From Dehalococcoidia bacterium UBA5620 (lineage in GTDB: Bacteria > Chloroflexota > Dehalococcoidia > GIF9 > UBA5629): a DNA stretch of 64,000 nt. Shown piece after piece: positions 1 to 19,649 of the stretch; positions within the stretch are counted from its first letter, which is position 1; the number at the start of each line of letters is the position of its first letter. The notes under the pieces are model-generated. The model saw nothing but the letters and a program-made list of their open reading frames with translations, did not search any database and was not told the DNA's origin. The position numbers and the translations under genes were made by a program. Location: positions 34,882 to 98,881 of the forward strand of contig DIKK01000022.1 in NCBI GenBank assembly GCA_002423605.1, in the 5' to 3' direction.

Positions 1-402
1 AGGCATAAGTTCGCCATCTGTTGTAAGCTCATAGCCTTCTGTTCTAAACGCATCTGCAGCATTTGCTATGCAGTCAGGACCAATGTAGTTTGGTGATTCA
101 GGTCGAAACCCACCACACCCTTTAATTAACGAGATCAGATTGGCCACTAAAAGCTCACCTGCCTCAGGCGCATTCTGCATTGCCCACATTAAGGTACCAC
201 GGACGCGTTTTGCTTTGCCTACAACTTGGCCCGATGCCTTCGGGTCGCCATTCTGGAGTTGCGTACGATTTATTTGAAATTCGATGTCTGAGTGGCTAGG
301 CTCACGCGTGACCGATTGGGCGTCATCGACGAGACGAGCGACTGCTATTATGATAGCATCAGATAATGGCCCTCCAGTCTTTGATCCATCAGCATTCAGC
401 AT
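1..402 (-). CDS. Hypothetical protein, N-terminal 134 aa only; the gene runs off the window start. Possibly Abi-like, unverified.
   Basis: Open frame on the minus strand from ATG (complement of 400-402) to position 1 with no stop. GGGAG sits 6 nt upstream of the ATG. Translation MLNADGSKTGGPLSDAII...GTLMWAMQNAPEAGELLVANLISLIKGCGGF. Not in the ORF track because it is partial. Confidence 0.4.
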   Translation of the reverse strand, partial: MLNADGSKTGGPLSDAIIIAVARLVDDAQSVTREPSHSDIEFQINRTQLQNGDPKASGQVVGKAKRVRGTLMWAMQNAPEAGELLVANLISLIKGCGGFRPESPNYIGPDCIANAADAFRTEGYELTTDGELMP

Positions 403-621
403 TTGATGCTCCCTTACTCCTCCACTTCGATCTTTAACCCAGCACTTGACCAATTGGACACCGTCGTAATTGCCCAGATGGATTATACCACTCCTTAGAA
501 TCCCCTGGCACTGTTGTTGACTACTGTTATTCTTAGGGAGTAGGGAGCGATCACTGAACTTCTGGCTACAAGGTGTAGTAGACTGCGGGCGAATATTAAT
601 TTACCTGCACATTAAATGTCC

Positions 622-652
622 TTAAAAATATAACAGTTATTATTGTATAATA
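622..652 (+). promoter_or_regulatory. Candidate sigma70-type promoter with extended -10 (TGTATAAT) for the MTase-HNH operon
   Basis: TGnTATAAT at 644-651 and a weak -35 TTAAAA about 17 nt upstream. The start codon at 667 follows a GAGGAG RBS. Confidence 0.4.
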
Positions 653-666
653 CGAGGAGAACAAAT

Positions 667-1581
667 ATGCTGAATAAAACAAACGTCCCCCATCCGATAC
701 CCTACCAAGGAAGCAAACGTATGCTTGCCCCAATAATATTAGACTACTTCCCAAAAGATGTAAGCACGTTATATGAACCATTCGCAGGATCAGCTGCAGT
801 ATCCATTGCTGCGTTATTTTCAGATAAAGTAAAACGAGTGCATCTTAACGATATTAATAAGCCACTTATCAATTTGTGGAAAATGATAACTGACAATCCT
901 ATATCAATATCATCCGCATATAAATCAATGTGGCAGGAGCAGATAGGGAATGAACGTACCTACTATGATCTCGTGCGTGATCGCTTTAACGCTAATCAGC
1001 AAGAAGCAGATTTACTCTATTTAATGGCACGTTGTGTAAAAGCCTCAATACGGTATAATGCATGTGGTCAGTTTAATCAAAGTCCTGACAATAGACGTAA
1101 AGGAATGAATCCAACTACAATGACCTATCATATTCATTCCGCCTCTCGCTTATTAAAGGGCAGGGCTATTTTCACAGCGATAGATTACCTTGAGATATTG
1201 AACCAAGCAACCGTTAGCGACATTGTCTATATGGATCCGCCCTATCAGGGAGTATGCGGACAAAGAGATTCAAGGTATTCCAATAGTATAGCTTTTGACA
1301 GATTTGTTTCCGCTCTACAATCTCTATCGGATAACAATATCCCGTATATTGTTAGTTACGATGGTAGAACAGGTGACAAGACCTATGGCATGAAACTTCC
1401 TGAATCCCTGCGGTTAAATCATATCGAAGTTCATGCTGGACGTTCATCTCAAGCCACACTCTTGGGGAGGAATCATGATACGTATGAGTCTCTTTATATC
1501 TCGCCTGCCCTAATATCCCGTCTTAATGCGCATGACTCAAGACTCTCATCTGTTGGCCAAACACCACTATTTGTCTATTAG
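667..1581 (+). CDS. N6-adenine DNA methyltransferase, Dam/D12 class
   Basis: DPPY catalytic motif (VYMDPPYQG). N-terminal AdoMet region PYQGSKR...EPFAGSAAV. ATG at 667 preceded by GAGGAG; the track ORF begins at 643. Confidence 0.85.
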   Translation: MLNKTNVPHPIPYQGSKRMLAPIILDYFPKDVSTLYEPFAGSAAVSIAALFSDKVKRVHLNDINKPLINLWKMITDNPISISSAYKSMWQEQIGNERTYYDLVRDRFNANQQEADLLYLMARCVKASIRYNACGQFNQSPDNRRKGMNPTTMTYHIHSASRLLKGRAIFTAIDYLEILNQATVSDIVYMDPPYQGVCGQRDSRYSNSIAFDRFVSALQSLSDNNIPYIVSYDGRTGDKTYGMKLPESLRLNHIEVHAGRSSQATLLGRNHDTYESLYISPALISRLNAHDSRLSSVGQTPLFVY

Positions 1582-1583
1582 TT

Positions 1584-2318
1584 ATGAATAATCAAGATTT
1601 ACCCGAAGACTTTATCAGGAAATTGAAAGCCGTTACAAACAAACGTCCACGGACAGTAATCGACCATATATTGAAAAATGGATATATCACCACTGAGGAG
1701 CTCAAAACACTATATGGCTATCAACACCCCCCACGTGCAGCACGTGATGTACGTGAAGAAGGCATTCCTTTAGAAACATTCCGCGTTACAGATAGTTCAG
1801 GCCGATCTATAGGTGCTTATCGTTTTGCCAATATCTCTGAAGCACGTTTTGGTCGTCTGGGTGGTAGGAAGATATTCCCAAAAGATTTCAAGACCGGTCT
1901 TATTAAGTTGTTAGGATGCAAATGTTCCATATGCTTGGATGATTATGAAGATCGTTATTTGCAAGTTGATCATAGAGTTCCATATGAGGTTACAGGTGAC
2001 GATAAATCTTTAGAGCGAGATTATAATGGTTATATGCTATTATGCGGCTCTTGTAATCGAGCAAAATCATGGTCTTGTGAACATTGTGTTAATTGGTCCA
2101 AAAATAAGAAACCCGATATATGCGGAGACTGTTATTGGGCACAACCAGACTCATATAAACATATAGCTATGCGTGAAATAAGGAGACTCGATATTGTATG
2201 GCATGAAGAAGAGGTTGCCGATTATGAGGAGTTGAAGAGACAGTCTGATTCTGTTATGACGAACATTCCCGATTTTGTCAAAGCTGTTCTAAAAAAGCAC
2301 ATTAGACGAATCCCTTGA
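1584..2318 (+). CDS. HNH endonuclease, candidate cognate restriction enzyme of the upstream MTase
   Basis: ATG lies 2 nt after the MTase stop, suggesting translational coupling. Zn-finger/HNH core: CKCSICLDD...QVDHRVPY...CGSCNRAK...CEHC. Confidence 0.65.
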   Translation: MNNQDLPEDFIRKLKAVTNKRPRTVIDHILKNGYITTEELKTLYGYQHPPRAARDVREEGIPLETFRVTDSSGRSIGAYRFANISEARFGRLGGRKIFPKDFKTGLIKLLGCKCSICLDDYEDRYLQVDHRVPYEVTGDDKSLERDYNGYMLLCGSCNRAKSWSCEHCVNWSKNKKPDICGDCYWAQPDSYKHIAMREIRRLDIVWHEEEVADYEELKRQSDSVMTNIPDFVKAVLKKHIRRIP

Positions 2319-2579
2319 CATGGATTATGGTTCATATTAGATTGCACGGTAAGACATCACGCAATACTATTGCCTCCGTTGTTTATAGAATGCCCGATGT
2401 ACGCAGAGTAAGGCTTGCACGTTATTAAAAATATCAATAAAACAGCAACAAATCCTTTTCCGTGTTTCGCCCAATCATTCTTCTATATAATTGATGCCCT
2501 GTTTTAGACCCCCCTGTATCCCCATCTTCCCCTTCATCTGAGATTTCCAATTTTCCCTGGATGGTTTACGATTTTCAGC

Positions 2580-2753
2580 ATGGATAAACGCACTGAGCGT
2601 ATCTTTTACACGTTCAAAGAGGCCATGGAACATCTGGCGGTTAGCAGATACACGCTGCGCAAGCTGATGAGGTCAGGGCTACCGAGCCACAGGATAGGTA
2701 GGAAAATCGTGTTTCTGAAAGAAGATGTAGCGGACTGGATAAAAAGGCACTAA
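2580..2753 (+). CDS. Excisionase-like HTH DNA-binding protein, 57 aa, paralog 1
   Basis: MDKRTERIFYTFKEAMEHLAVSRYTLRKLMRSGLPSHRIGRKIVFLKEDVADWIKRH. Matches the excisionase/MerR-type HTH pattern. Shares a conserved leader (ttcccctggatggtttacgattttcagcaATG) with the copies at 6469 and 13351. Confidence 0.7.
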   Translation: MDKRTERIFYTFKEAMEHLAVSRYTLRKLMRSGLPSHRIGRKIVFLKEDVADWIKRH

Positions 2754-2878
2754 ATCTCATTCAGAACAGCAGTTTGATGCAAGAAACGCAAAATGATATT
2801 GTTAGGCACAGCCGGAGGCGCATAGTCGGTAAAGATAGTTTTCTGCTTACTTCTAAGTAAAAGGAGAATGCGATATAT

Positions 2879-3457
2879 ATGAGTGCAAGTATTATTGCGG
2901 CCATAGTAGTTATTATTGCCATTGAGTGTTACTACATAATATCGGAGATTAGGCTTGCCGCCCGCACTACACGGGGAACGGACAATACCCTTGATAAGGG
3001 AACGAGGCGACTTGTCTGGAGGCTTAGTGCAATCTCTTACAATATGGCGTGGATCCCCGTAATATTTGACTTCGGCCGCCTGATTATTCTGGGTGGCTGG
3101 CTAACATGGGTGGGCGTAGCTATCATGATTTTTGGTATTGTATTCCGGCAATATGCTATTTCTACCCTGGGGAAGTTCTTTACAGCAACAATACAGATTA
3201 AAAATGACCACGAATTAATCCAGACCGGCCCCTACCGCTATATCCGGCATCCGTCATACCTGGGAATACTCATCATGACCTTGGGTTTAGGAATTGCCCT
3301 AGCCAACTGGATTTCCCTGATACTATGTATAGTGCTTCCTACCATCGGCTTGATGCAGCGCATCAAGTTTGAGGAGAAGGAATTGGAACAGCACTTTGGT
3401 AACCAATACCAGGACTACAGGAAAAACACTTGGCGTGTTATCCCGTACATATATTAA
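2879..3457 (+). CDS. Isoprenylcysteine carboxyl methyltransferase (ICMT/PEMT) family membrane protein
   Basis: Multi-TM protein. C-terminal signature TGPYRYIRHPSYLGILI...EEKELEQHFG. Confidence 0.75.
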   Translation: MSASIIAAIVVIIAIECYYIISEIRLAARTTRGTDNTLDKGTRRLVWRLSAISYNMAWIPVIFDFGRLIILGGWLTWVGVAIMIFGIVFRQYAISTLGKFFTATIQIKNDHELIQTGPYRYIRHPSYLGILIMTLGLGIALANWISLILCIVLPTIGLMQRIKFEEKELEQHFGNQYQDYRKNTWRVIPYIY

Positions 3458-3514
3458 ATCGGGCTTATATATTGGACACAGGCCAGATGGAAGATGGGGA
3501 GGCACTACATCCCT

Positions 3515-3566
3515 CCTTTGACGCTTTCCCTGCCGCTTCCCGGCGGTGGTACTAACTGTGGCGACC
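3515..3566. repeat. R2 repeat copy: a highly degraded integrase 3'-end/att scar
   Basis: cctttgacgctttccctgccgcttcccggcggtggtactaactgtggcga. About 80% identical to the 3' tail of the integrase remnants (ttgacgctcccctgccgctcc...ccccgacggcagcac). Further copies at 4597-4648 and 8014-8065. Confidence 0.5.
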
Positions 3567-3652
3567 TGTCCCCTTAATCTACAGGCTGACATGGAAGCTG
3601 GACTGATTTTAGGGGGGCGGGTCAGGCTAGTACTACACGGGATGATGTGACT

Positions 3653-3817: not shown

Positions 3818-3917
3818 ATTAAAGAACACTAACCGAATTTAACTCCTAAACACTTAAGCTCTGTCATACTAAGGTTGCGATAGCGCTGTAATACTTTGTT
3901 ATGCCGCGACTCATTAC

Positions 3918-4334
3918 TTATTTAGTTAAGTGGTAGCCTTCATCAGTCAGTGCTTTTCTAGCAGCGTTTCTTTGGCCAAGAGAGGCTCCATTATTTCTGG
4001 CGAATATGAGCACCTTGTCGAGTATTGCCCTAATTCCAGCCTTATCATTGCGATCAGGTAATGTCCAAGAGGAGGAAGCACCGTCTTGGAATTCGATATG
4101 AAGCTGATTGTTATGAATCTGAGAGGTCATTCTTTGTTTGGCGATTGACCTACCACGTCCTGTTGAGGTTCGATAAGAACTTCCTCCGTCTCCAGTGAGC
4201 GTTTGAATTCCCTCATACGTCGAATTCGGAGGCAATTCAAATACACGTCTAAGAACGTCATCCTCAGTCTCTCCAAATTTACCACGACCTGCGATAGCTT
4301 GCCAGACTTCTTCAGATATTTTAATAGTACGCAT
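3918..4334 (-). CDS. Hypothetical protein, island cargo
   Basis: 138-aa ORF MRTIKISEEVWQAIAGRGKFGETEDDVLRRVFELPP.... No motif I can assign. Confidence 0.45.
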   Translation of the reverse strand: MRTIKISEEVWQAIAGRGKFGETEDDVLRRVFELPPNSTYEGIQTLTGDGGSSYRTSTGRGRSIAKQRMTSQIHNNQLHIEFQDGASSSWTLPDRNDKAGIRAILDKVLIFARNNGASLGQRNAARKALTDEGYHLTK

Positions 4335-4596
4335 AAGTAACTCCTTAATAAGTATTACTTCTTATATTATCACTACTTCTTATAGAAGTCAAGCGCCTTT
4401 TAAGATAAGTAAATCGGAATGTCCTATTTACAGGTAAGTTTTCCTACGTGTCGTTTGGTTGGGGGTGACTTCTATTGAATTAACTATTTAATAGCGAGGA
4501 TTGTATTTGAAATGATGACATGACGATGCAAGGGCACCAGCTTATACTGAGAGCACACATTATTAGGCCAACCTCATCTCAGCGGGTTCTCATCTC

Positions 4597-4648
4597 CCCT
4601 TTGCCGCTCCCGTGCCGCTTCCGCGCCGTGGTACTAACTGTGGCGATC
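4597..4648. repeat. R2 repeat copy
   Basis: ctttgccgctcccgtgccgcttccgcgccgtggtactaactgtggcga. Followed about 75 nt later by the tRNA-like fragment, the same arrangement as at 8014. Confidence 0.5.
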
Positions 4649-4728
4649 TGTGGTCACACGTATATTGGGCCAATACAGGACGGTATTTAATGATATTCCA
4701 CGGGATGGGACGGTATGTCTGGCTCATC

Positions 4729-4766
4729 GTTACGAAACCGCTGCTCTACCACTGAGCTACGCTGGC
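4729..4766 (-). other. tRNA 5'-half-like fragment (acceptor strand, D arm and anticodon loop; reads as Thr-CGU-like). Not an intact tRNA.
   Basis: Minus strand GCCAGCG TA GCTC AGTGGTA GAGC A GCGGT TTCGTAA, then no complementary anticodon-stem 3' strand, no T arm and no acceptor 3' strand. Lies 12 nt downstream of the integrase-remnant stop. Confidence 0.55.
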
Positions 4767-4781
4767 GCTCACGATGCAGGG

Positions 4782-4967
4782 TTAAAGTTTTGACGCTCCC
4801 CTGACGCTCCGGGCTACCCCCGACGGCAGCACTTCATCAAGTAACGCCATGGCATCTTCCTGCATGCCAGATATTATATGTGAATATGTATCCATGGTAA
4901 AGGCTACGCTGGCATGTCCCAGAGCCTCAGAAATCACCTTGGGCTTGGCTCCCACATGGAGTCCCAA
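4782..4967 (-). pseudogene. Tyrosine recombinase (phage-integrase family) C-terminal remnant
   Basis: ...KPKVISEALGHASVAFTMDTYSHIISGMQEDAMALLDEVLPSGVARSVRGASKL*. Carries the catalytic-Tyr box. Only about 60 aa; the upstream part is non-coding. Confidence 0.75.
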
Positions 4968-5250
4968 GTAATGGGAAACTATGCAGACCCGTCAGACCCT
5001 GCAGGTATGAATTTATAATCCTGGTGTGTGATGCAGCCCATTATTATTTTATTGCTATTGTCGCCATGTTTGAGACCCGGTGGGGGTCGCAGGAATCATC
5101 CGCATCCGTGGCATTATTGGAATACTGGATGCAGTCTGTGTGTGTTGCGGCCTGCTGTTTGAGCGTCAGCCGAGCGTCCGTGTATTTGGTCGTCAGGATG
5201 GACAGCGGGTTGGGAGACCGCCGTCCACTATACATCTCAATGCCCAGATT
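4968..5250. repeat. R3 conserved non-coding block, copy 1 of 2
   Basis: About 85% identical over ~250 nt to 11160-11400 (cagcccattatt.ttttattgc...ccatgtttgagacccggtgggggt.gcagga...). No convincing protein in any frame. Confidence 0.5.
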
Positions 5251-5439
5251 ATTGCATCTGGTGGGCAAAGGCCTATTCCAGATTGACCTGTTCTTGAGGT
5301 CATTGTGCTTGTGGGACTAGTTGAAAAAGTGGTATAAGTATTGACGGAAGGCTCAAGATGGCTTTGACAGGCGTTGACTTTGCATAACGTCAATATAGTT
5401 TATTACATCTATACAGTATAATATTGGCCCTGAGAATAG

Positions 5440-6201
5440 ATGCTAAAAAGAAAGAGGCAAAACTACTTCAGCCTAATTTTCTCAGTAATTACTGCCATCC
5501 TGTCGATAGCTGCCATCTGTATATCAATAATAGCTGTTCGTCAATCCGAAAAAGCAAACTTACTATCTGAAATCGTAAATTCACCTATTATCGTAGTGAC
5601 AAACACAAACGAATTTGATTTCGCTACCCGCCAAGGCACCGAGAAGGTATCCATCATGAATACTGGCGGCCCGATAAGAGAATATACCTCTGGTTTCGCG
5701 TATATAATAGAAATATACTGCGTCTGTAGAAATAGTGGAGGAATGTTTAATGAAGGGCTGGAGTTGGAATTTAACGGTTATTTCGATACGGTTCAACGAA
5801 GTAATTCTCTTCAAGGTATAATCGAAACTGCCTGGTGTGATAATAACTACGGTAAAGACCTGGCGCTAAGTGATGAATTTGACGACGCTGCTGCCAAAGA
5901 TGGCTATAGTTACAGCATCAGATCCCGTAAATTAGTATGGATTAGTTATAAAAATTTCTTAGGGAATGAATATATGAAAGCCTTTAGCATAAACCCTTAT
6001 ACTAATACGAATACGGCATCAGAAATACATTATCAATCTTTTAGAGACAAAGCGTTACTACCGTCCTTTATGAACGCGAATGAACCAAAAAGCAAAGGTG
6101 TATCTTGTGATTTAAATACAACCACAGGAACACAGCTATGGGACTGGTACAAAAATCGTGGATTAGGTGACGATTGTCGTTCTGATTGTGCTGGTAGATA
6201 G
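5440..6201 (+). CDS. Hypothetical membrane-anchored protein, island cargo
   Basis: 253-aa ORF with an N-terminal TM helix (LIFSVITAILSIAAICISIIAV), a Cys-rich C-terminus, and lower GC than the backbone. Confidence 0.45.
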   Translation: MLKRKRQNYFSLIFSVITAILSIAAICISIIAVRQSEKANLLSEIVNSPIIVVTNTNEFDFATRQGTEKVSIMNTGGPIREYTSGFAYIIEIYCVCRNSGGMFNEGLELEFNGYFDTVQRSNSLQGIIETAWCDNNYGKDLALSDEFDDAAAKDGYSYSIRSRKLVWISYKNFLGNEYMKAFSINPYTNTNTASEIHYQSFRDKALLPSFMNANEPKSKGVSCDLNTTTGTQLWDWYKNRGLGDDCRSDCAGR

Positions 6202-6468
6202 AATTGATAATCCGCTTCAGCACCTGACCTGCTTCCCAATACTCATACCATCTCTTAAGTCACTCCCACAAGCACTTAGGCATGCCAATAAACTGATTGG
6301 CATGCCCCCCGTGCTAGCTATAACATGCAGGGAAGGATCCGGGTTTGTTATTTAACCTATCATTGTTTATGCCGTTATCTCCAATGTTTTAGACCCACCC
6401 CCATATCTCCCATCTTCCCCTTCATCTTAGCTTTCCAATTTCCCCTGGATGGTTTACGATTTTCAGCA

Positions 6469-6651
6469 ATGGATAAACGCACTGGGCGTATCTTCTACAC
6501 GTTCAAAGAGGCTATGAATCATCTGGCGGTTAGCAGGTACACGTTGCGCAAGCTGATGAAGTCAGGGCTACCAAGCCACAGGATAGGTAGAAAGATCGTG
6601 TTCCTGAAAGAAGACGTGGCCGACTGGATAAAAAGGCAGAGCCCTCAGTAA
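6469..6651 (+). CDS. Excisionase-like HTH protein, paralog 2 (60 aa)
   Basis: MDKRTGRIFYTFKEAMNHLAVSRYTLRKLMKSGLPSHRIGRKIVFLKEDVADWIKRQSPQ. Same leader as paralog 1. Confidence 0.7.
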   Translation: MDKRTGRIFYTFKEAMNHLAVSRYTLRKLMKSGLPSHRIGRKIVFLKEDVADWIKRQSPQ

Positions 6652-6772
6652 TCCGAGCTTCCGCTAGATCGCATCACTGAAGGCCGGAGATGGCGATGCT
6701 ACCTGACTCGACGATTAAGAGTCCTTGTTGGCCATATTCTAGGCTTGCGTCAAATATATAAGCTAGGACTCT

Positions 6773-7933
6773 TTATTCGAACTTAAAGCCCTTATTCTTG
6801 AAAACTATCAAACAGGCATCCACTACATCGGCGTCGTAGAGTCTACCTCTGTTTTGTGAAATCTCCTCCAGTGCCTTATCTATGCCTAGCGCTGGGCGGT
6901 AAGGACGGTGAGAAGACATGGCCTCAACCACATCGGCAACAGCCAAGATTCTAGCCTCTAGGGAAATGTCTTCTCCAGAAAGACCGTTAGGATAGCCAGA
7001 ACCATTCAGCTTTTCATGGTGTTGGAGTATCGCCTGGGCAACTGGCCAAGGGAAATTTACCCCTTTCAGTATATCATGAGCGACTTGTGGATGAGTCTGA
7101 ATAATACCGAGTTCATGATTGCCTAACTTACCAGGTTTGCTCAAAATTTCGGATGGCACAGCTACTTTCCCAATGTCGTGGATGAGCCCTATAATACGTA
7201 TTCCCTCAATCTGGTCTTCTGAAAGACCCACCTCAGTGGCAATAGCACAAGAGAGCCGAGCTACTCGCTTTTGGTGAGATGCAGTATAGGGATCCCTGCT
7301 CTCACATAGGATTATTATGGAGTTAACGGTTTCACTAAACGTCACTCGTGAACTATCGAAATCTTGTAGAATTCCTGTTTCCCGTTTTGTTAGCCCTACT
7401 ACAGTAGCTGAGCGTCCTTCCATCTTGACAGAGAACTCAACCTTTCCATTAGTAATAACATTTCTGTCTTTGGCAGTAAAGAGCTTAATAGCTATATTAT
7501 CAGCCAGTTGCAGTTTATAAGTCTGTCCTTTATAAGCTTTGAACATCAGGAAAAACCATAGGAATAAGGTTAAGGCAATCACAATCCAGTACAAGACGAC
7601 TAGGAACCAATAGAGAGTATCATTGGCGATTTTAACTAAGCTCAGAACTATAATCGGCACGGTGAGTATTCCAAAGGTTACAATTGATTGACGAGCGTGG
7701 AAGCGAACGAAGCTATCTTCTCTCTTTATAATTAGCAGAATTATTCCAGATATCCAGCCAAGTGAATAGCAGAGAAGTCCAGCAATATTAGGTCGCAGGT
7801 AGGTAACAGCAGTTATATACCATACTCTTGTCTTACAGATCGCCACTTTACTGTTACGGTAAAGCTCTTTAATGTAATCGACTGCCTTTGTAACTATAAC
7901 GTTCACTGAATATCGCATCTCTCTAATTTGCAT
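6773..7933 (-). CDS. Membrane-anchored HD-GYP domain protein (predicted c-di-GMP phosphodiesterase)
   Basis: N-terminal TM helices. HD domain HDIGKVAVP ... HHEKLNGSGYP (HD-GYP signature). Confidence 0.75.
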   Translation of the reverse strand: MQIREMRYSVNVIVTKAVDYIKELYRNSKVAICKTRVWYITAVTYLRPNIAGLLCYSLGWISGIILLIIKREDSFVRFHARQSIVTFGILTVPIIVLSLVKIANDTLYWFLVVLYWIVIALTLFLWFFLMFKAYKGQTYKLQLADNIAIKLFTAKDRNVITNGKVEFSVKMEGRSATVVGLTKRETGILQDFDSSRVTFSETVNSIIILCESRDPYTASHQKRVARLSCAIATEVGLSEDQIEGIRIIGLIHDIGKVAVPSEILSKPGKLGNHELGIIQTHPQVAHDILKGVNFPWPVAQAILQHHEKLNGSGYPNGLSGEDISLEARILAVADVVEAMSSHRPYRPALGIDKALEEISQNRGRLYDADVVDACLIVFKNKGFKFE

Positions 7934-8013
7934 TATTATCCCATGCGCACTAAGCTGTCCCCAAGTATTTATACCACTTCCTAAGTTAGTCGTGCAAGAG
8001 ATTGAACTTACCC

Positions 8014-8065
8014 TATTTGGACGCTTTCCACGCCGCTCCCCGGCGGTGGTACGAACTGTGGCGAT
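8014..8065. repeat. R2 repeat copy
   Basis: tatttggacgctttccacgccgctccccggcggtggtacgaactgtggcga. Confidence 0.5.
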
Positions 8066-8147
8066 ATATGGTAACCCGTATATAAGACCAATACAGGGCT
8101 ATATCAAACAATATCTAACAGGATAGGATTGTATGTCTGGCTCCTCG

Positions 8148-8184
8148 TTACGAAACCGCTGCTCTACCACTGAGCTACGCTGGC
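8148..8184 (-). other. tRNA 5'-half-like fragment, copy 2
   Basis: Identical core to copy 1: GCCAGCGTAGCTCAGTGGTAGAGCAGCGGTTTCGTAA. Confidence 0.55.
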
Positions 8185-8199
8185 CCGCACGATGCGGGG

Positions 8200-8385
8200 T
8201 TAAAGTTTTGACGCTCCCCTGCCGCTCCGAGCTACCCCCGACGGCAGCACCTCATCAAGCAACGCCATGGCATCTTCCTGCAGCCCCGATATTATATGCG
8301 AGTAGACATCCATTGTAAAAGCTACGCTAGAATGTCCTAGGGCTTCTGAAATGACTTTAGGCTTTGCCCTACGCATCAAGGTCAC
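8200..8385 (-). pseudogene. Tyrosine recombinase C-terminal remnant
   Basis: MTLMRRAKPKVISEALGHSSVAFTMDVYSHIISGLQEDAMALLDEVLPSGVARSGRGASKL*. Confidence 0.75.
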
Positions 8386-8442
8386 TAGCGAAGATGTACC
8401 GTGGGTCGTGACTTATGCTCTCTAGGCTTGCCCGTCAGAGTG

Positions 8443-10665
8443 TCATTGACCATTTGATTCTGCAGTTCCTCTACTATAGCCTTCTTCTGCTAGCTTCTCC
8501 ATGATGCGGGCGGCTCTAGGGTAGCCGATACGTAGACGGCGCTGCAAAAAGGAACTTGAGATGTTTTTATGTTCTTGGGCTAACTGTCTGGCAGCTTCCA
8601 GCATTGCGTCTTCGCCGTTTTTTTCGGTTGAAGCAAGTTCACTCATCTCCTCGAATCTGAGTGGTTTCATCTCGGGTCTTTTTTGATTACCCCAGAACGA
8701 TACTATCCTCTCTATTTCAGCATCGGAGATAAAAGTCCCCTGAAGACGTTTTGGTTTGCTGGCATCTGTGGGCATATAAAGCATATCGCCTCTGCCCAGC
8801 AGCTTTTCAGCTCCAGCAGCATCAAGGATGGTTCTTGAGTCCACCTGTGAAGTGAGCGCAAAACTTATACGTGTTGGGAAGTTAGCTTTGATGAGACCGG
8901 TGACCACGTCGACAGACGGACGCTGGGTCGCTACGACCATATGGATACCGGTAGCCCGGGCTAGTTGAGCTAAACGGCAAAGAGTATGCTCCACCTCGTC
9001 GAAAGCTGCCATCATCAGGTCAGCTAGCTCGTCGATAACCACCACTATATAGGGCATTGTGTCTCCGTAATGTCGATTTGTGTTGTAGCTATCGATGTTA
9101 CGTGCGCCGGCCCGGGCGAACTTGTTATAGCGGTTGTCCATCTCCTGGTTAAGCCAACGTAACGCCAGGATTGCTTTATCAGAATCTACAACCACAGGAG
9201 CTGCCAGATGAGGCAGGCTATTAAAATTAACCAGCTCCACGCGTTTTGGATCAATCATAATGCACTGGACATCATCGGGGGTATTGTGGATAAGAAGGCA
9301 GCAGATGATCGAGTTGAGACAGGCGGTCTTACCACTGCCGGTGGCTCCAGCAATAAGCAGATGGGGCATTCTATCCAGATAGCCAGCTACTGTTTCTCCT
9401 CCAGCTCCCTTGCCCAAAGCCAGAGCCAGTTTTGATTTGGCATGCGCTTTTTGAAAGGCGGAGCTCTCAATTACGCCCCGCAGATTGACCAAACTAAAGG
9501 TAGTATTTGGTACCTCGATGCCTACCACTGATTTTCCTGGCACTGGAGCTTCGATTCTGATGCTTGGCGCAGCCAGTGCCAGAGCTAGGTCGTTAGCCAG
9601 GGCGCTAATACGGTCAACTTTAACTCTAGTTTTTGACACCTCCTCCAGGCGGGTTATATCATTGCCAAATTCATCGCGCTCTCGGATTTTTTTGTATTTG
9701 CGGTCCCATCCAGGCTCGACTCCGAACTGGGTTACGGTAGGGCCGACATTGATCTGGACTACTTTAGCCTCAACGCCGTAGCTGTTTATAGCTTCTTCGA
9801 TGAGCTGTGCACGCTTCTCAACATCACTCTGGTTTAGCTCTATTTCCGTGGGCTTATTCAGGATATTTACCGGGGGTAAGCACCAGCCACCGGTGGTAAA
9901 TATCGATTGGTATTTTCTTGGCTCCCATGACTCGGGAGCAGGTACTTTGCGTGTTGGTGGAGGGGTGACAAAAGGAGGTTCTGTGTTGGTCTGTTTTTCC
10001 TCGGGAACGTGCATCTCTGTTTTTAGAGGCGTGACACTAATGACTTCTGTAACCAGCTGTATTTCCCTGGGAGCTAGGGCTGCCAGTGCTGCTGCGGGTA
10101 TGATACTAAGGGCTTGCATAACTACCTGTATTTCCTTTGGGGAAGGCACTGCCGGTATTGCTGGGGGTATGATGCTAATGGCTTGTGAAACAGGTTGTTC
10201 TTCCTCGATAGCAGGTGCTTCGGCTGCAGGTTGAGGCGTGGCGATGATGTCTTGCATAGCTGGTTGCTCTTCCTCAGGAGCAGGCACTTCGTCTGTTGTT
10301 GGAGATGCACTACTGCGGGCTTGTGAAACAGGTTGTTCTTCCTCGGTAGCAGGTACTTCAGCTGCAGGTTGAGGCGTGATACTAGGGGTCTGCGTAACTG
10401 GCTGATTTTCCTCGACATTGGAAAGTCCGAAGAATTTTGTTACCGGGTCAGGTTTGGCTTTAGGCGGCCGATGGCCGGTGACACTTTGCGGTGTTGGTGT
10501 AGTTGATGGTCTGGTTGGTTGTGGCTTGTGAGGTTTCTGCTGCTGTTGTTCCGCTCGATGCTTGTTCCCAAAAAGTAAGCCACAACTCGGGCAGCGACCA
10601 GATGCCTTATTTGTCTTGATACCACATCGCGGGCAATCGTTAAGGTGGTTTGTAGCGTTGTCCAT
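8443..10665 (-). CDS. ftsK: FtsK/SpoIIIE-family DNA translocase with an N-terminal C4 zinc ribbon, no TM domain, and a long Pro/Glu-rich repeat linker
   Basis: CPRCG...CPSCG at the N-terminus. Walker A GATGSGKT, Walker B VVVIDELADL. C-terminal gamma-like winged helix (SSFLQRRLRIGYPRAARIMEKLAEEGY). Confidence 0.85.
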   Translation of the reverse strand: MDNATNHLNDCPRCGIKTNKASGRCPSCGLLFGNKHRAEQQQQKPHKPQPTRPSTTPTPQSVTGHRPPKAKPDPVTKFFGLSNVEENQPVTQTPSITPQPAAEVPATEEEQPVSQARSSASPTTDEVPAPEEEQPAMQDIIATPQPAAEAPAIEEEQPVSQAISIIPPAIPAVPSPKEIQVVMQALSIIPAAALAALAPREIQLVTEVISVTPLKTEMHVPEEKQTNTEPPFVTPPPTRKVPAPESWEPRKYQSIFTTGGWCLPPVNILNKPTEIELNQSDVEKRAQLIEEAINSYGVEAKVVQINVGPTVTQFGVEPGWDRKYKKIRERDEFGNDITRLEEVSKTRVKVDRISALANDLALALAAPSIRIEAPVPGKSVVGIEVPNTTFSLVNLRGVIESSAFQKAHAKSKLALALGKGAGGETVAGYLDRMPHLLIAGATGSGKTACLNSIICCLLIHNTPDDVQCIMIDPKRVELVNFNSLPHLAAPVVVDSDKAILALRWLNQEMDNRYNKFARAGARNIDSYNTNRHYGDTMPYIVVVIDELADLMMAAFDEVEHTLCRLAQLARATGIHMVVATQRPSVDVVTGLIKANFPTRISFALTSQVDSRTILDAAGAEKLLGRGDMLYMPTDASKPKRLQGTFISDAEIERIVSFWGNQKRPEMKPLRFEEMSELASTEKNGEDAMLEAARQLAQEHKNISSSFLQRRLRIGYPRAARIMEKLAEEGYSRGTAESNGQ
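10060..10420. repeat. Roughly 141-bp tandem DNA repeat, about 2.5 copies, encoding the FtsK linker repeats
   Basis: gcttgtgaaacaggttgttcttcctcg.tagcaggt.cttc.gctgcaggttgaggcgtg recurs at about 10178 and about 10319. Confidence 0.6.
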
Positions 10666-10907
10666 ATGGGATGGCTGTGGTGCCTTCTTTACGGCAGCCT
10701 TCTTCCTATAGCTTTTCCATGATTCTGGTGAAATGCATCAAATATTTGTACCACTTTTTGAGTTAGTCCTGCAAATATAATAGCCTAAGGAGCGAGTTAT
10801 CTTAGTTAGCATTCTTTAGTGCATGCCACTGTCTTTAACGATTCTCTGCCATTAAGGTTTAGTAGTGTTTTGTATTGTTACATAATTTGGGCTGTTGATG
10901 AGAGTAT

Positions 10908-10942
10908 CGCGAACCGCTGCTCTACCACTGAGCTACGCTGGC
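10908..10942 (-). other. tRNA 5'-half-like fragment, copy 3 (ends in the anticodon-loop region)
   Basis: GCCAGCGTAGCTCAGTGGTAGAGCAGCGGTTCG, then divergent. Confidence 0.5.
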
Positions 10943-10957
10943 ATGCACGATGCGGGG

Positions 10958-11179
10958 TTAAAGTTTTGACGCTCCCCTGCCGCTCCAGTCTACCCCCGGC
11001 GGCAGCACCTCATCAAGGAGCGAAATTGCATCTTCCTGCATCCCCGATATTATATGCGAATAGGTGTCCATGGTAAAGGCTACGCTGGCATGTCCCGGAG
11101 CCTCGGAAATGACCCTGGGCTTTGCTCCCACATGGAGTCCCAAGTAATGGGAAACTATGTAGACCCTGCAGGTATGCAT
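10958..11179 (-). pseudogene. Tyrosine recombinase C-terminal remnant
   Basis: ...IVSHYLGLHVGAKPRVISEAPGHASVAFTMDTYSHIISGMQEDAISLLDEVLPPGVDWSGRGASKL*. Confidence 0.7.
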
Positions 11180-11400
11180 CTATGCTCCGGGTTTGTGTTT
11201 CAGCCCATTATTGTTTTATTGCCATGTTTGAGACCCGGTGGGGGTAGCAGGAAACATCCTCACCTATGGCATTATTTGAATACTGGACGCGGTCTGTCGG
11301 TGTGTGTGTTGCGACCTGCTGTCCGAGCGTCAACCGAGCGTCAGGATATGTGGCTGTCAGGATAGACAGCGGATCAGCAGACCGCCGCTCAATATGCTGA
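11160..11400. repeat. R3 conserved non-coding block, copy 2
   Basis: See 4968-5250. Confidence 0.5.
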
Positions 11401-11786
11401 CGTTAATAACAGGTATAACATTAAGACCATTATCTGAAGCAGGCAGAATACAATACGGTATGACCTAATAGTGCACTTAGATATCGGCCTCCTGCTCTGG
11501 AAGCTGTATCGGTAGCATCTCCAACTCAAGAGGTGATACACTTCTTTGGGACAGGCCTAAGTAAATAATTCCGCTATAGTGAATCATTTTACGGGGCTAT
11601 CAGGACTCATCACTGGATATCGCTGACAGCACACCGGCATAGGTATTCATACTAGGCATTGAAAGAATAAATAAAGTATTGTAGAATTATGATGTAAGCG
11701 CAATTGAACCTATTCTTGGTGCAACCATTTTACTGGTCTAAGAATGTGTGTTATCTTATTTCTGGGTGTAAGATATTTAGTGGTAG

Positions 11787-13127
11787 ATGACGTTGAAACC
11801 TAGAGGACTGTTCGTAAAAAAGCAAGAAGCACCACTTCAACAGATTGCGGAACTTCCTATCCGTGAAGGTCTCCTGAATTATTTCGATGATCTTCCTATT
11901 GGCATAAATACCGTGGATATCCTGGGCAATTTTACCTATGTTAACAAGAGATTTCTGGAAGTATCAGGTTATTCCAAAGAGGAAGTTATTGGAAAGAACG
12001 GGTTAAAAATTGGCTTGTTTCCCCCAGATAGCTTAAAACGCTTAGCCAAAAGGATGCGGGCTAGGTTATCTGGAAAACCCTCGCAATATTTGGAGCTTCA
12101 GTTCAAATGCAAGGATGGCAGGTTGATCTGGGTAGAGCTTGAAGCTAGGTTGCTCAAAAATCATGGTTTTCCAATCGGCTTTCAAATTACTTCAAGGGAC
12201 ATCACCTATCGTAAGCAAGCTGAGGAGATGCTTGCCGACGAAGCGAACCGATGGCGTATGCTAATGCAACAGTCCAGAGACGGGATAGTTATCATCGATG
12301 AGGACGGCAAGGTGCATGAGGCAAACCAGCGTTTTGCCGAGATGCTCGGATATTCTCCCGATGAAGTCAGCCAGCTATACTTATGGGATTGGGATACTCA
12401 ATATACACGTGAGCAACTGCTCGAGATGGTGCGGACTGTTAGCGAGGCGGGCGACCATTTCGAGACATACCACCGTCGTAAGGACGGTACTACTATTGAT
12501 GTTGAAATCAGCAGCAATGGGGCTATGTTTGCAGGACATAAACTGATTTTCTGCGTGTGTCGTGATATAAGCGAACGCAAGAAGGCAGACGAGGCTATAA
12601 AGAGAGTTAATAAGCAGTTAATGGAATCGTCCAACCATGATATTATGACCGGCTTGCCAAATAGAAGGTTATTATATGAACATTTTGACATAGCACTGGC
12701 GAGTGCACAGCGAAACAAGAAAATACTGGCAACAATATCCCTCGATCTTGACAAATTCAAGGCTATAAATGACGCATTTGGTCATGACGTAGGAGATAAG
12801 CTATTAGTTGCCGCTGCAGACCGGATGACCAGCATTTTACGTAAGACTGATACAGTTGCCCGCATGGGCGGAGATGAATTTGTTGTGCTTTTATGGGATC
12901 TTGACCATAAAAGCACAACAGTTAAAGTTGCACAAAAAATATTAGAGGGGTTCCGACAACCGTTCAGTGTTGATGGTCACACGCTTAATAATACTGTCAG
13001 TGTGGGCGTCGCAATATATCCGGAAAATGGCAGTAACATCGAAGAATTGCTGAAGAGTTCCGATAAATCACTGTATCGAGTAAAAGAAAGTGGCAGGAAT
13101 AATTATCAATTGTCTGCTAGCAGCTAA
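11787..13127 (+). CDS. PAS-PAS-GGDEF diguanylate cyclase
   Basis: Two PAS blocks followed by GGDEF (RMGGDEFVVLL). The last ~450 nt are about 90% identical, in inverted orientation, to the 3' end of the 15469-18423 gene. Confidence 0.85.
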   Translation: MTLKPRGLFVKKQEAPLQQIAELPIREGLLNYFDDLPIGINTVDILGNFTYVNKRFLEVSGYSKEEVIGKNGLKIGLFPPDSLKRLAKRMRARLSGKPSQYLELQFKCKDGRLIWVELEARLLKNHGFPIGFQITSRDITYRKQAEEMLADEANRWRMLMQQSRDGIVIIDEDGKVHEANQRFAEMLGYSPDEVSQLYLWDWDTQYTREQLLEMVRTVSEAGDHFETYHRRKDGTTIDVEISSNGAMFAGHKLIFCVCRDISERKKADEAIKRVNKQLMESSNHDIMTGLPNRRLLYEHFDIALASAQRNKKILATISLDLDKFKAINDAFGHDVGDKLLVAAADRMTSILRKTDTVARMGGDEFVVLLWDLDHKSTTVKVAQKILEGFRQPFSVDGHTLNNTVSVGVAIYPENGSNIEELLKSSDKSLYRVKESGRNNYQLSASS

Positions 13128-13350
13128 TTCCGTAATTAAACGCAAAAGTAATCCCTTCTGCCATATCCGAGCAGATAACCTGTTTTACGCAGCGCTAGCT
13201 GGCTGTAACATGCATAGCTAAATCCGTGTTTGTCATTTGACCTGTCGTTCTTTATGCCGCCATCTCCCACGTTTTAGACCCCTGTATACCCCACCTTGCT
13301 ATTCATCTCAGCTTTCCAAATTTCCCCCGGATGGTTTACGATTTTCAGCA

Positions 13351-13523
13351 ATGGACAAGCGCACCGAACGGATCTTCTACACGTTCACAGAAGCTATGAA
13401 TCATTTGGCAGTCAGCAGGTACACGCTGCGCAAGCTGATGAAGTCAGGGCTACCGAGCCACAGATAGGTATAAAGATCGTGTTCCTTAAGGACGATGTGG
13501 CTGAGTGGATAAAGAGGCACTAG
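13351..13523 (+). pseudogene. Excisionase-like HTH gene, paralog 3, disrupted
   Basis: MDKRTERIFYTFTEAMNHLAVSRYTLRKLMKSGLPSHR* (TAG), then out of frame IGIKIVFLKDDVAEWIKRH. Confidence 0.6.
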
Positions 13524-13591
13524 ATTTTGTCACTGAAGGCTGGAGGCGAGCAGAGCAGTGATACTCCCTGAGTCGATGATTAAGATATAGT

Positions 13592-13879
13592 TTATGGGCG
13601 GTAAGTAGTCTCGGTACGGCGGGTTATCTGGATTATAAGCACCAACTTCTGAGAATCGTACACTTCGTAGACAACTCTGTAGTTGCCGGCTCTTATTCTA
13701 TAGGCTGCCTCGGCGCCTTTGATTTTTCTGACGCCATGGGGACGTGGTTCAACGGCTAAGGCTACAATGGAGAAGCTTAGACGCTCGAAATCGTGGAGTC
13801 GTATTCGGCCTTTCAGTTTTTGTAGGTCACGATCAGCGGCAGGTGATACTTCGATGCGGTACGCTTTTGGCTTGTTCAT
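13592..13879 (-). CDS. RelE/ParE-family toxin
   Basis: 95 aa, YRIEVSPAADRDLQKL...YRIRAGNYRVVYEV. Immediately downstream of a small RHH-like gene. Confidence 0.7.
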   Translation of the reverse strand: MNKPKAYRIEVSPAADRDLQKLKGRIRLHDFERLSFSIVALAVEPRPHGVRKIKGAEAAYRIRAGNYRVVYEVYDSQKLVLIIQITRRTETTYRP

Positions 13880-13887
13880 TGGCTGAA

Positions 13888-14148
13888 TTACGTTTTGCTT
13901 TCACGTTTGGTCAGCGCCTCTGTCATCTCCCTCTCTACCTCAGCCCAGGGACGACCACCTTTTTCCTCCCATTCAGCTCGGGCAGCATCGATTACAGGCA
14001 ATAGCTCAGCATCCTCCCTGTTTTCCAGCCACTCAAGTACAGCTTCACTGACTATATCGCTGGCAGGCTTGCGCCGCCTCACGGCCTCTACTTTCAGATT
14101 GGTGTAGAGGTCATCATCGTGAAAGACTACGGTCATTCTTCTGCTCAT
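13888..14148 (-). CDS. RHH/CopG-type antitoxin (start taken at MSRRM; the track ORF is longer)
   Basis: MTVVFHDDDLYTNLKVEAVRRRKPASDIVSEAVLEWLE. Confidence 0.55.
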   Translation of the reverse strand: MSRRMTVVFHDDDLYTNLKVEAVRRRKPASDIVSEAVLEWLENREDAELLPVIDAARAEWEEKGGRPWAEVEREMTEALTKRESKT

Positions 14149-14232
14149 CGGTATCCTCCATTCAAGCGTATAGGCATAAAAGCATACACGTGCATGTATT
14201 GTATCAATAGATGTTTTGGCAGTCAACTTCTA

Positions 14233-14502
14233 TCAGTCATATGTAGGTGGACTCGCCTCCTCCTTTGACATTTCCATGCCGCTCCGGGCCACCCCCGACG
14301 GCAGCACCTCATCTAATAGCGCCATGGCATCTTCCTGCATGCTATGATAGACGTCCATCGTAAAGGCAACGGAGGCATGCCTCAGGGCCTCGGAAATCAC
14401 CTTGGGCATTGATACCGAAGTGCGTGTTATAGATTTACGATACGATAACATTATGGGAATAGCCCATAATGTACTTGACAAAATATATAGTGTGCTGTAC
14501 AC
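14233..14502 (-). pseudogene. Tyrosine recombinase C-terminal remnant (diverged 3' tail, no adjacent tRNA-like piece)
   Basis: ...MPKVISEALRHASVAFTMDVYHSMQEDAMALLDEVLPSGVARSG.... Confidence 0.6.
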
Positions 14503-14534
14503 TTAGCATACGATACTATACAGGAGGCATCGGA

Positions 14535-14915
14535 ATGAAAATAAGTAGATATCGTATTTACAAGGCGATCATAGGAGGTGGGCTGGGTGCTGCTGTGGGA
14601 ATTGCGGTTGCTACTGACACCGCCATAATTGCGCTGGTGGCGGTTGTTGTAGCTATTGTAATTGCGGTTATTCTGGAACGTAGAAACAAGGAGATAGTTC
14701 GGGATGAGCGAATCTTGCAGATCGGCAGGAAAGCTACTTCTACCTCTTTCTATGGCATGCTTATTCTGGCGGGAGTCGCCTCATTGGGCACCGCCCTTTT
14801 CCGCAACCAGTTGCCGGAGAGTGTTGTTTTTGCTGGTTCTATCATGGGCTATTTTGTCTGTGTTGCATTAATACTATATATGTGTTTGTACGCCTATTTC
14901 AGCCGGAAGCTATAG
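14535..14915 (+). CDS. DUF2178-like small membrane protein
   Basis: MKISRYRIYKAIIGGGLGAAVGIAVAT..., three or four TM helices. Abuts an XRE regulator, the usual pairing for this family. Confidence 0.55.
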   Translation: MKISRYRIYKAIIGGGLGAAVGIAVATDTAIIALVAVVVAIVIAVILERRNKEIVRDERILQIGRKATSTSFYGMLILAGVASLGTALFRNQLPESVVFAGSIMGYFVCVALILYMCLYAYFSRKL

Positions 14916-14916
14916 G

Positions 14917-15162
14917 GTGCGACAGATGAAAAACAGGCTAAAGGTATTTCGTGCCATGCATGACCTCACACAGGAGGCGCTGGCCGATCAATTGCGCGTG
15001 ACCAGGCAGACGGTCGTTTCCATCGAAAATGGTAAATACGATCCTTCCCTGCCGCTTGCTTTTCGTATCGCCAATCTTTTTAATGTAAAAATTGAGGACG
15101 TCTTTTTATACGAAGGTGAACCGGGTGAATTTCATGGCTATCCACCCATGTCTAAGAAGTAG
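14917..15162 (+). CDS. XRE-family HTH transcriptional regulator
   Basis: LTQEALADQLRVTRQTVVSIENGKYDPSLPLAFRIANLF. Confidence 0.8.
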   Translation: MRQMKNRLKVFRAMHDLTQEALADQLRVTRQTVVSIENGKYDPSLPLAFRIANLFNVKIEDVFLYEGEPGEFHGYPPMSKK

Positions 15163-15227
15163 CGCCTATTTATATAGGGATACCATCTGCGCAGTTGTTA
15201 AAAGCCGTGCCAGGTGCAGAATCGATG

Positions 15228-15245
15228 CCACTGAGCTACGCTGGC
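15228..15245 (-). other. Truncated tRNA-like fragment (acceptor 5' strand plus start of D arm only)
   Basis: GCCAGCGTAGCTCAGTGG, then unrelated sequence. Confidence 0.4.
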
Positions 15246-15260
15246 ACGCACGATGCGTGG

Positions 15261-15420
15261 TTAAAGATTTGACGCTCCCCCTGCCGCTCCGTGCTACCCC
15301 CGACGGCAGCATCTCATCAAGGAGCGACATCGCATCTTCCTGCATGCTATGAGTAGACGTCCATTGTAAAAGCAGCTGAGCTATGTCCTAGCGCCTCCGA
15401 TATTACTTTAGGCTTTGCGT
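15261..15420 (-). pseudogene. Tyrosine recombinase C-terminal remnant, copy 5
   Basis: Complement encodes ...KPKVISEALGHSSAAFTMDVYSHSMQEDAMSLLDEM...; below the ORF-track size cutoff. Confidence 0.55.
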
Positions 15421-15468
15421 CTCTTAATGGCATATGACTGGCAAAGGTATTCTTAGGCTCTTTGATAA

Positions 15469-19636: not shown

Positions 19637-19649
19637 ATAGGAGATAGAA

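Follow-up and report, generated by a model that had tools for sequence, protein, structure and literature searches.

Why should a bacterial chromosome carry several copies of the 5′ half of a transfer RNA (tRNA) gene in a region where the complete gene is nowhere to be found? The question is raised by a 64,000-nucleotide (nt) stretch of the Dehalococcoidia bacterium UBA5620 assembly (GCA_002423605.1; contig DIKK01000022.1, positions 34,882 to 98,881 of the forward strand), which we analyzed as a whole and refer to as the window. A first-pass annotation, made from the sequence alone, had marked repeated tRNA 5′ halves on the minus strand of positions 4729–15245 and offered two explanations: an attachment (att) core in the anticodon loop, with a mobile element supplying the 5′ part of the gene, or a tRNA gene that had since been destroyed. 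Our analysis indicates that this interval is very probably the older part of a ~20.8-kb array, built up as related small elements entered a single tRNA-Thr(CGU) gene time after time by site-specific integration, each bringing its own 5′ half.

A search of the entire window revealed two exact minus-strand copies of a 37-mer, GCCAGCGTAGCTCAGTGGTAGAGCAGCGGTTTCGTAA, at 4730..4766 (scar c1) and 8148..8184 (scar c2), where none is expected by chance (100 dinucleotide-preserving shuffles). The 37-mer comprises nt 1–37 of a tRNA-Thr(CGU) gene, namely the acceptor 5′ strand, the D arm, the anticodon-stem 5′ strand and the loop TTCGTAA. Both copies stop at the last base of the anticodon loop and continue as CGATG (c1) or CGAGG (c2), where the stem would need ACCGC, exactly the Thr-CGU-like 5′ half ending before the anticodon-stem 3′ strand that the annotation had described. 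The repetition of 5′ halves is likewise real, although only two of the four pieces are complete. Scar c3 (10911..10942, minus strand) is degenerate, keeping nt 1–31 intact (18-mer match at 10919–10936 and alignments) with small deletions beyond, and scar c5 (15228..15245, minus strand) keeps only the first 18 nt of the tRNA according to repeat and alignment comparison. These two truncated copies account for the outer limits of the annotated interval.

The absence of an intact tRNA from the window was borne out by every search made for one. ARAGORN found none, Rfam models gave no tRNA in the window at gathering thresholds and none in positions 1–20000 at E values up to 10, and a pattern search of the window for a matching tRNA 3′ half returned nothing; nor was any repeated copy of T-arm or acceptor 3′ sequence found. 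The sub-threshold Rfam matches (a KDPG-aldolase RNA at 8176–8251 and two small nucleolar RNA models) were rejected as chance matches.

The missing gene lies just beyond the window. An exact-protein look-up of an HNH nuclease open reading frame (ORF) from the window led to two metagenomic contigs, L118 (343.8 kb) and L119, where L-numbers are labels of public contigs or loci compared with the window. Both are identical to the window over the overlap (12,318/12,318 bases), and window coordinates equal L118 coordinates minus 8417. On the minus strand of L118, ARAGORN identified an intact tRNA-Thr(CGU) at 3098–3172 (window −5319 to −5245), 5.2 kb outside the window start and at the edge of the array, with hisS next. 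Its nt 1–37 are identical to the piece in c1, so the search proposed in the annotation, for a genomic tRNA beginning with the repeat and lying at the array edge, succeeded. Directly upstream is a full-length integrase gene (L118 3188–4342, minus strand; domains PF14659, PF22022 and PF00589 (Phage_int_SAM_3, Phage_integrase); motifs HDLRH and YSH), whose stop codon is separated from the tRNA by 15 nt. The nearest solved structures to this integrase are the Tn1549 Int protein and Xer-type recombinases, and it is at most 37% identical to the nearest annotated phage integrases.

These findings decide between the two explanations on offer. The destroyed-gene alternative is wrong, the gene being intact, whereas the alternative with an att core in the anticodon loop and an element-supplied 5′ part is supported by the intact gene and the geometry of the array, with the crossover itself something that we infer. 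The annotation had also named a flanking intact tRNA with a 3′-half duplication as a sign that its strand was mis-set; the flanking tRNA shows no such duplication, and the strand was correct.

Each tRNA piece proved to be part of a larger repeat. Every piece sits 15 nt past the stop codon of a tyrosine-integrase tail made up of the last 52–66 codons (..LGHASVAFTMDTYSHIISGMQEDAMALLDEVLPSGV..), and the five remnants, all on the minus strand, match residues ~318–383 of the full-length L118 integrase by tblastn. In c1 the remnant (4782..4967; residues 324–383, 93% amino-acid identity) holds the last ~60 codons and the stop (translation ..GAKPKVISEALGHASVAFTMDTYSHIISGMQEDAMALLDEVLPSGVARSVRGASKL) and is joined to the tRNA piece by the 15-nt spacer at 4767–4781. 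The c2 remnant (8200..8403; residues 319–383, 85% identity) begins 40 nt past the stop of an FtsK-like gene, and the c3 remnant (10958..11143) covers residues 324–383 at 83% identity. Scar c4 (14263..14406; residues ~332–383) consists of the integrase remnant only, its tRNA piece being lost. The c5 remnant (15261..15454) is frame-shifted and starts 15 nt past the stop of a PAS-GGDEF gene (15469–18423); both c4 and c5 were delimited with tblastn and alignments.

On their other side, the tRNA pieces of c1 and c2 are followed by a conserved arm of ~135 nt, which we call X. The X arm of c1 (4593..4729, minus strand), a candidate P′ arm of attP, is 85% identical to that of c2 (8011..8147, minus strand), and the start of the arm is also conserved after tRNA 5′ halves in other genomes (L107, L067); in c3 the arm is down to ~4 nt. 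An orphan distal X arm at 3511..3564 (minus strand; c0) marks one more element boundary, from which the integrase remnant and tRNA piece were deleted. The window thus holds a tandem array of five integrase-tail scars and one orphan arm, and tblastn with the L118 integrase found no full-length integrase in it.

Read toward the tRNA, the locus consists of the PAS-GGDEF gene, c5, c4, c3, the FtsK-like gene, c2, c1, c0, the youngest element with its whole integrase, the tRNA and hisS. This order fits a history in which each element brought a 5′ half and pushed the previous one upstream. The farther a scar lies from the tRNA, the less of it is intact: c1 and c2 are both complete, c3 survives in degenerate form, and c4 and c5 lack a promoter motif described below along with all or most of the tRNA piece. 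The remnants differ from one another by 12–36% at the DNA level, the c1 tail differs from the active one by ~22%, and c2 is nearer to the active copy than to c1. Scar c1 is the attL of the youngest element or elements, and c5, the most upstream scar, would be the oldest.

We propose that the elements responsible each carry a tyrosine integrase, the youngest also carrying a Prim-Pol replicase, and that their attP lies directly past the integrase stop and holds tRNA nt 1–37, which run from the 5′ end of the gene to the last base of the anticodon loop. A crossover located in or at that loop would join the element-borne 5′ half to the resident 3′ half, giving a working gene in the order integrase, 15-nt spacer, tRNA, and the old 5′ half would be moved upstream and fused to the far arm (X) of the element. 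Each arrival would have displaced the previous 5′ half plus the integrase tail before it. Later deletions would then have taken most of each older element, leaving the five minus-strand scars with the newest nearest the tRNA and the most decayed farthest from it; this order of integration events is one that we infer. Finally, a replacement promoter for the rebuilt tRNA would be supplied from inside the integrase gene.

The same geometry is observed directly in other genomes. The 37-mer is common in Dehalococcoidia metagenome-assembled genomes (MAGs), with at least 117 loci in a scan of genome contigs; most of the loci listed are intact genes of the ordinary kind, preceded at a short distance by a TATAAT-like box, and others are junctions. 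Sharing of the tRNA half and of the integrase clade with these genomes is what points, indirectly, to a Dehalococcoidia host for the window. For example, CAZNEL010000038.1 contains a complete 10.2-kb element, in which the native flank, a 5′ half and the arm lie at 2410, a 395-residue integrase at 11391–12578 and an intact tRNA at 12593; its 772-residue ORF we take to be a putative primase/helicase. The MAG VGNY01, a relative in which empty and occupied sites can be compared, has attB, attL and attR: the upstream flank of attB matches that of attL at 109/120 positions and its downstream flank matches that of attR at 88/88. At these junctions it is the orphan 5′ half that retains the native promoter flank. 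In W31_71, attL and attR are on one contig, 4.3 kb apart.

To sample the integrase clade, we compared 80 metagenomic relatives (L122–L201) with 68–78% identity. Overall, 64 of the 80 have an intact, co-oriented tRNA directly downstream, whose start lies at most 91 nt from where the protein match ends and usually 12–15 nt past the stop codon. The targeted tRNAs represent eight isoacceptors: Thr(CGU), Trp(CCA), Arg(CCU), Leu(UAA), Lys(CUU), Ser(UGA), Phe(GAA) and Met(CAU). Where the downstream sequence of a relative is long enough but contains no intact tRNA, there is an attP-like junction instead, composed of the integrase tail, a 5′ half ending exactly after the anticodon loop and the conserved arm (..NNNAA followed by TTCTAGG..).

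These junctions bear on the position of the crossover. An element that supplies the gene only from nt 1 to the crossover should have a shared block whose 3′ edge marks the overlap region. In c1, in c2 and in the attP-like junctions for Thr, Arg and Lys, the final base of the loop is exactly where the block stops; strand exchange probably takes place within the 7-nt anticodon loop, as in the known anticodon-loop class. Just 5′ of the loop, the target tRNAs of the clade share a sequence that reads ..TAGAGCAGCGG.. in Thr, Trp, Arg and Phe; Leu, Lys and Met depart from it by one or two changes, and Ser by more. The shared sequence may be a conserved core-type site, in which case a different loop and different upstream tRNA sequence in attP would be all that the clade needs to switch target.

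Integration of this kind displaces the native promoter, and the element must therefore supply one. The best candidate for the promoter of the rebuilt tRNA, judged by its sequence, is a sigma-70-like motif, TTTACA/C-17 nt-TATAAT, embedded in the integrase codons AFTMDxYSHII around the catalytic tyrosine, pointing at the tRNA and lying 106–146 nt upstream of its +1. Exact motif searches located it on the minus strand at 4873..4901 in c1 (TTTACC-17 nt-TATAAT; codons AFTMDTYSHII), at 8291–8319 in c2 (TTTACA-17 nt-TATAAT) and at 11049–11077 in c3, and a promoter scan located it at L118 3307–3279 in the live integrase (TTTACC-17-TATAAT, minus strand). It is intact in these four copies and lost from c4 and c5, which have in common one ~12-nt deletion (CATATAATATCGGG to CATAGC) that removes the −10 hexamer; c4 and c5 are therefore related by descent and not products of independent decay. 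In the sequences inspected, no convincing or conserved proximal promoter was present in the 15-nt spacer or the last 40 nt of the integrase gene.

Synonymous-site comparison of 72 unique family sequences, in which codons of the hexamers were set against the same amino acid in other columns, revealed that the hexamers are constrained at the nucleotide level. The Phe codon of the −35 is TTT in 72/72 sequences (26/72 and 38/72 in other Phe columns). In the −10, the His codon is CAT in 72/72 (33/72, 63/72 and 49/72 in other His columns) and the Ile codon is ATA in 69/70 (6/70 and 22/72 in other Ile columns); the synonymous sites are frozen. The exact motif also occurs within 220 nt upstream of 24 of 103 intact tRNA-Thr(CGU) genes from different species, 22 of which (22/24) have no full-length integrase. 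Several loci (L019, L020, L045, L077 and L080) keep both hexamers even though the protein motif has been destroyed.

The integrase tail appears to have a second function, in carrying P-arm binding sites. Pairs of RGAGCGKC, 11–12 nt apart, are present in the tail, and a similar pair is found at the distal end of each X arm: GAAGCGGC at 4614–4621 and GGAGCGGC at 4603–4610 in c1, 8032–8039 and 8020–8027 in c2, and 3532–3539 and 3520–3527 in c0 (motif search, minus strand). Within positions 1–16000, all 15 matches (15/15) lie at integrase 3′ ends or distal X arms on the minus strand, with 0 on the plus strand. These pairs look like arm-type integrase binding sites, a candidate role suggested by their placement. 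Either role, promoter or P arm, would explain the persistence of the integrase tails.

On balance we lean toward a wider interpretation, in which the clade (probably of Dehalococcoidia) made reversed integration its standard by means of the promoter in the catalytic-tyrosine codons. The last 40–90 codons of dead integrases, present upstream of about one-fifth of the tRNA-Thr(CGU) genes sampled with this 5′ half, would then serve as a permanent host tRNA promoter, and the tail would double as a P arm that keeps integrase-less derivatives mobilizable. Small changes in the 5′ half would have retargeted the clade to at least eight tRNAs sharing GAGCAGCGG next to the anticodon loop.

Other origins of the array have to be weighed against repeated reversed integration. 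Because fragments at the 3′ end are by far the commonest outcome (3,760 of 3,919 islands in Islander; PMC4383910), one might suspect canonical 3′-end integration read on the wrong strand, or the integrase of a neighboring canonical island. We give this next to no credence: the intact gene is on the minus strand (ARAGORN) and the repeats are its nt 1–37, repeats of T-arm or acceptor 3′ sequence are absent, the intact gene has the fragments upstream of it, and in the attB, attL and attR of relatives the native promoter flank remains with the orphan 5′ half. The wrong-strand reading is thus refuted by the strand of the gene, the absent 3′-half repeats and the VGNY01 junctions together. A further rival gives the 5′ halves a function of their own: they would be split-tRNA genes, or the fossil promoters would transcribe them into regulatory 5′ tRNA-half RNAs. 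It draws some force from c1, c2 and c3, which keep an intact embedded promoter aimed at the 5′ half and in each of which the next minus-strand gene is co-oriented (an RHH gene, an HD-GYP gene and the FtsK-like gene). We nevertheless regard it as very unlikely, there being no matching 3′ half, leader complementarity or bulge-helix-bulge context and an intact gene for the same tRNA; moreover, decay of the older scars has gone unchecked, which speaks against selection acting on the pieces as such. A split tRNA of the Nanoarchaeota/Caldivirga type was likewise rejected, given the lack of a 3′ half in the window and of any tRNA match at E up to 10, the ordinary intact gene and the bacterial host (assigned by its FtsY, Lgt and GGDEF proteins).

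The remaining rival, local segmental duplication of an integrase tail with its 5′ piece, leaving remnants of a destroyed or pseudogenized tRNA family without repeated integration, we consider improbable, if less so than the other two. It would account for the resemblance of c1 and c3, which are 88% identical, have the same integrase truncation point and share a ~215–270-nt upstream repeat (4994–5231 and 11161–11395), and for the ~12-nt deletion common to c4 and c5. However, the intervening segments differ in their genes, several having their own Xis-like HTH_17 gene and X arms, the remnants are 12–36% apart in DNA, c2 is closer to the active copy than to c1, the tRNA gene is intact, and a single-element version of the same architecture recurs in many genomes. 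We also rejected the idea that the upstream repeat is itself degenerate integrase; it is a distinct repeat carried by the elements and is found a third time within the youngest one (L118 7613–7828), 3.3 kb from its integrase. Scars c1 and c3 thus have one deletion in common, which points to repeated integration of an integrase-less derivative.

Several points count against reversed integration as set out here. Given the features shared by c1 and c3 and by c4 and c5, some scars may be local duplicates or trans-mobilized integrase-less derivatives and not the marks of five independent full elements. The FtsK-type gene is unexpected as cargo inside such an array, and the positions of cleavage are deduced solely from the end of the shared block. 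Four of the 72 family sequences lack the exact promoter motif, and the constrained hexamers could instead be P-arm protein-binding sites. For this genome we saw neither products nor junctions of excision, nor a circular form or an empty site.

Reversed geometry is rare but already known, and the mechanism is of a known, uncommon kind. In Islander, islands with a 5′ tRNA-gene (tDNA) fragment number 159 of 3,919; the other 3,760 have a 3′ fragment, and tandem arrays of at least three are recorded only four times (PMC4383910). Of the two parts of a tRNA gene, the 5′ part is described as far less often involved in recombination than the 3′ part (PMC6563490). At ~4% of Islander islands, the departure from canonical integration, which leaves 3′ halves, is less exotic than the annotation implied. 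As portrayed in papers that cite or catalog them, islands with 5′ tDNA fragments (Zhao & Williams 2002, J Bacteriol 184:859, via PMC6563490; PMC4383910) resemble the present elements in having a tyrosine integrase beside attP and an element-borne 5′ part, with the intact recombinant gene at one end, a direct 5′ fragment upstream at the other and expression signals supplied by the element. The corresponding features are found here: the integrase abuts the intact gene, 5′ fragments of the same orientation lie upstream, and independent elements (CAZNEL010000038.1, VGNY01) are arranged likewise. Compared with the islands in those accounts, the present case involves a whole clade (68–78% identity) on at least eight isoacceptors, a stop codon 12–15 nt from the tRNA +1 and an embedded near-consensus promoter. 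What may be novel beyond this picture is the breadth of the clade (eight tRNA targets at ~70% integrase identity), the presumed promoter in the catalytic-tyrosine codons and its survival in fossil tails upstream of working tRNA genes.

A close parallel is found among Archaea. The pTN3-like integrases encoded by plasmids and proviruses of Thermococcales (Cossu et al. 2017 and Krupovic & Bamford 2008, as summarized in PMC8371274) use the 5′ half of a tRNA gene as attB and restore an uninterrupted gene, and expression of the rebuilt tRNA is ascribed to the element-borne integrase promoter; the same source describes use of the 5′ half as seldom seen in bacteria. Those enzymes are 'suicidal' integrases of the SSV type, with attP inside the integrase ORF and a gene split by integration, whereas here the host is bacterial, attP lies past the stop, the ORF stays whole and the promoter would be of the sigma-70 type. 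A split integrase of the SSV/pTN3 type was accordingly rejected for this locus, because the tRNA-identical block begins 15 nt past the stop and the whole ORF of 365–384 residues is kept; L086 and L108 likewise have a whole integrase ORF with the tRNA-identical block after its stop.

The sites also resemble the anticodon-loop sublocation class (Williams 2002, NAR 30:866, as presented in PMC8371274 and PMC4383910), since the attP/attB block ends at the edge of the 7-nt loop with symmetric stem flanks, which fits the logic of a 7-bp overlap between core sites; relative to the class as presented there, the shared block here runs from the 5′ end of the gene to the loop. The tRNA-dependent lysogeny of mycobacteriophages (PMC10865867) is another unusual solution to tyrosine-integrase insertion inside a tRNA gene, one that does not restore the tRNA but makes up for the loss with a separate tRNA gene carried by the phage. 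That solution was rejected here, where the gene is rebuilt precisely and ARAGORN found no complete tRNA gene inside the elements.

Tandem accretion of integrative elements with defective derivatives is familiar from the cis-mobilizable elements (CIMEs) and integrative and conjugative elements (ICEs) of Streptococcus. Arrays of ssrA-specific islands, in the same bacterial class as our genome, reportedly occur in Dehalococcoides, where they use the 3′ end of the transfer-messenger RNA gene in canonical orientation. Accretion arrays share with the present locus their repeated internal att sites, decayed integrase remnants and cargo-only segments at one RNA gene; compared with the ssrA islands, the target here is tRNA-Thr(CGU) and the polarity is reversed.

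Read in this way, an odd repeat becomes a legible history of at least six integrations at one tRNA gene, and an orphan tRNA 5′ half beside an integrase tail becomes a reliable marker of reversed-polarity islands. The embedded promoter, if real, would be a compact answer to the main cost of reversed integration, the loss of the native tRNA promoter, and would make a host tRNA gene dependent on a fossil integrase fragment. With close relatives that hit eight tRNAs, the clade offers a natural set for studying target change by tyrosine integrases, which matters for integrase bioprospecting.

The scars also have a bearing on assembly. Many related public contigs (L005, L010, L015, L041, L069, L088, L126, L132, L135, L161, L190 and others) end within the tRNA 5′ half or a few bases past it, which suggests that short-read assemblies of this locus are routinely broken by the repeated scars. 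Two other features were noted among the loci compared. L043 and L108 have a feature downstream of the tRNA that may have been left by the arm of another element, one in canonical orientation. L058, from a Dehalococcoidia MAG, has two complete tRNA-Thr(CGU) genes 1.1 kb apart (1786–1857 and 2942–3016), the first of which has no encoded CCA and a different 3′ flank and is unlike the 5′-half scars.

Between the scars, gene content varies by segment. The in-window part of the youngest element (E0; 1..3510, the remainder lying outside the window in L118) contains the end of an Abi_C gene running off the window start (1–~560, minus strand), a D12 (adenine) methyltransferase (643–1581, plus strand) with an adjacent HNH nuclease (1584–2318, plus strand), an HTH_17 Xis-like gene (2580–2753) and an ICMT-family gene (2879–3457). 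Its outside part, in L118, encodes a Prim-Pol/AAA_25 replicase and ends with the full-length integrase and the intact tRNA-Thr. The methyltransferase and nuclease, together with the Abi_C abortive-infection gene, give the youngest element defense-type cargo. The decayed element between c2 and c1 (4968..8010) has an HD-GYP-type HD_5 protein (6773–7933, minus strand), an HTH_17 Xis-like gene (6469–6651, plus strand) and an ORF of 253 residues with no assigned function (5440–6201). Overall, three HTH_17 Xis-like genes and one remnant are present among the scars.

The decayed element between c3 and c2 (8404..10910) has a single gene, for an FtsK/SpoIIIE-type translocase of 740 residues (8443–10665, minus strand). 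This protein has alpha, motor and gamma domains, a zinc-ribbon-like N terminus and Pro-rich linkers, and no N-terminal membrane segments. It may be a cargo or transfer translocase, as in the integrative elements of actinomycetes, rather than a housekeeping FtsK.

The older decayed elements between c5 and c3 (11144..15227) contain a PAS-GGDEF gene (11787–13127, plus strand), an HTH_17 remnant (13271–13520), a ParE/RHH toxin–antitoxin pair (13592–14226, minus strand) and a DUF2178 membrane protein (14469–14915, plus strand). Beyond c5, the upstream chromosomal flank of the array is marked by the second PAS-GGDEF gene (15469–18423, minus strand), in which PAS repeats recur with a ~375-nt period (16062–17214). 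The two PAS-GGDEF proteins are inverted relative to each other, have near-identical GGDEF ends (..LTGLPNRRLLY..FDIALASAQRNKK..) and bracket c4 and c5, an arrangement that could mediate inversion.

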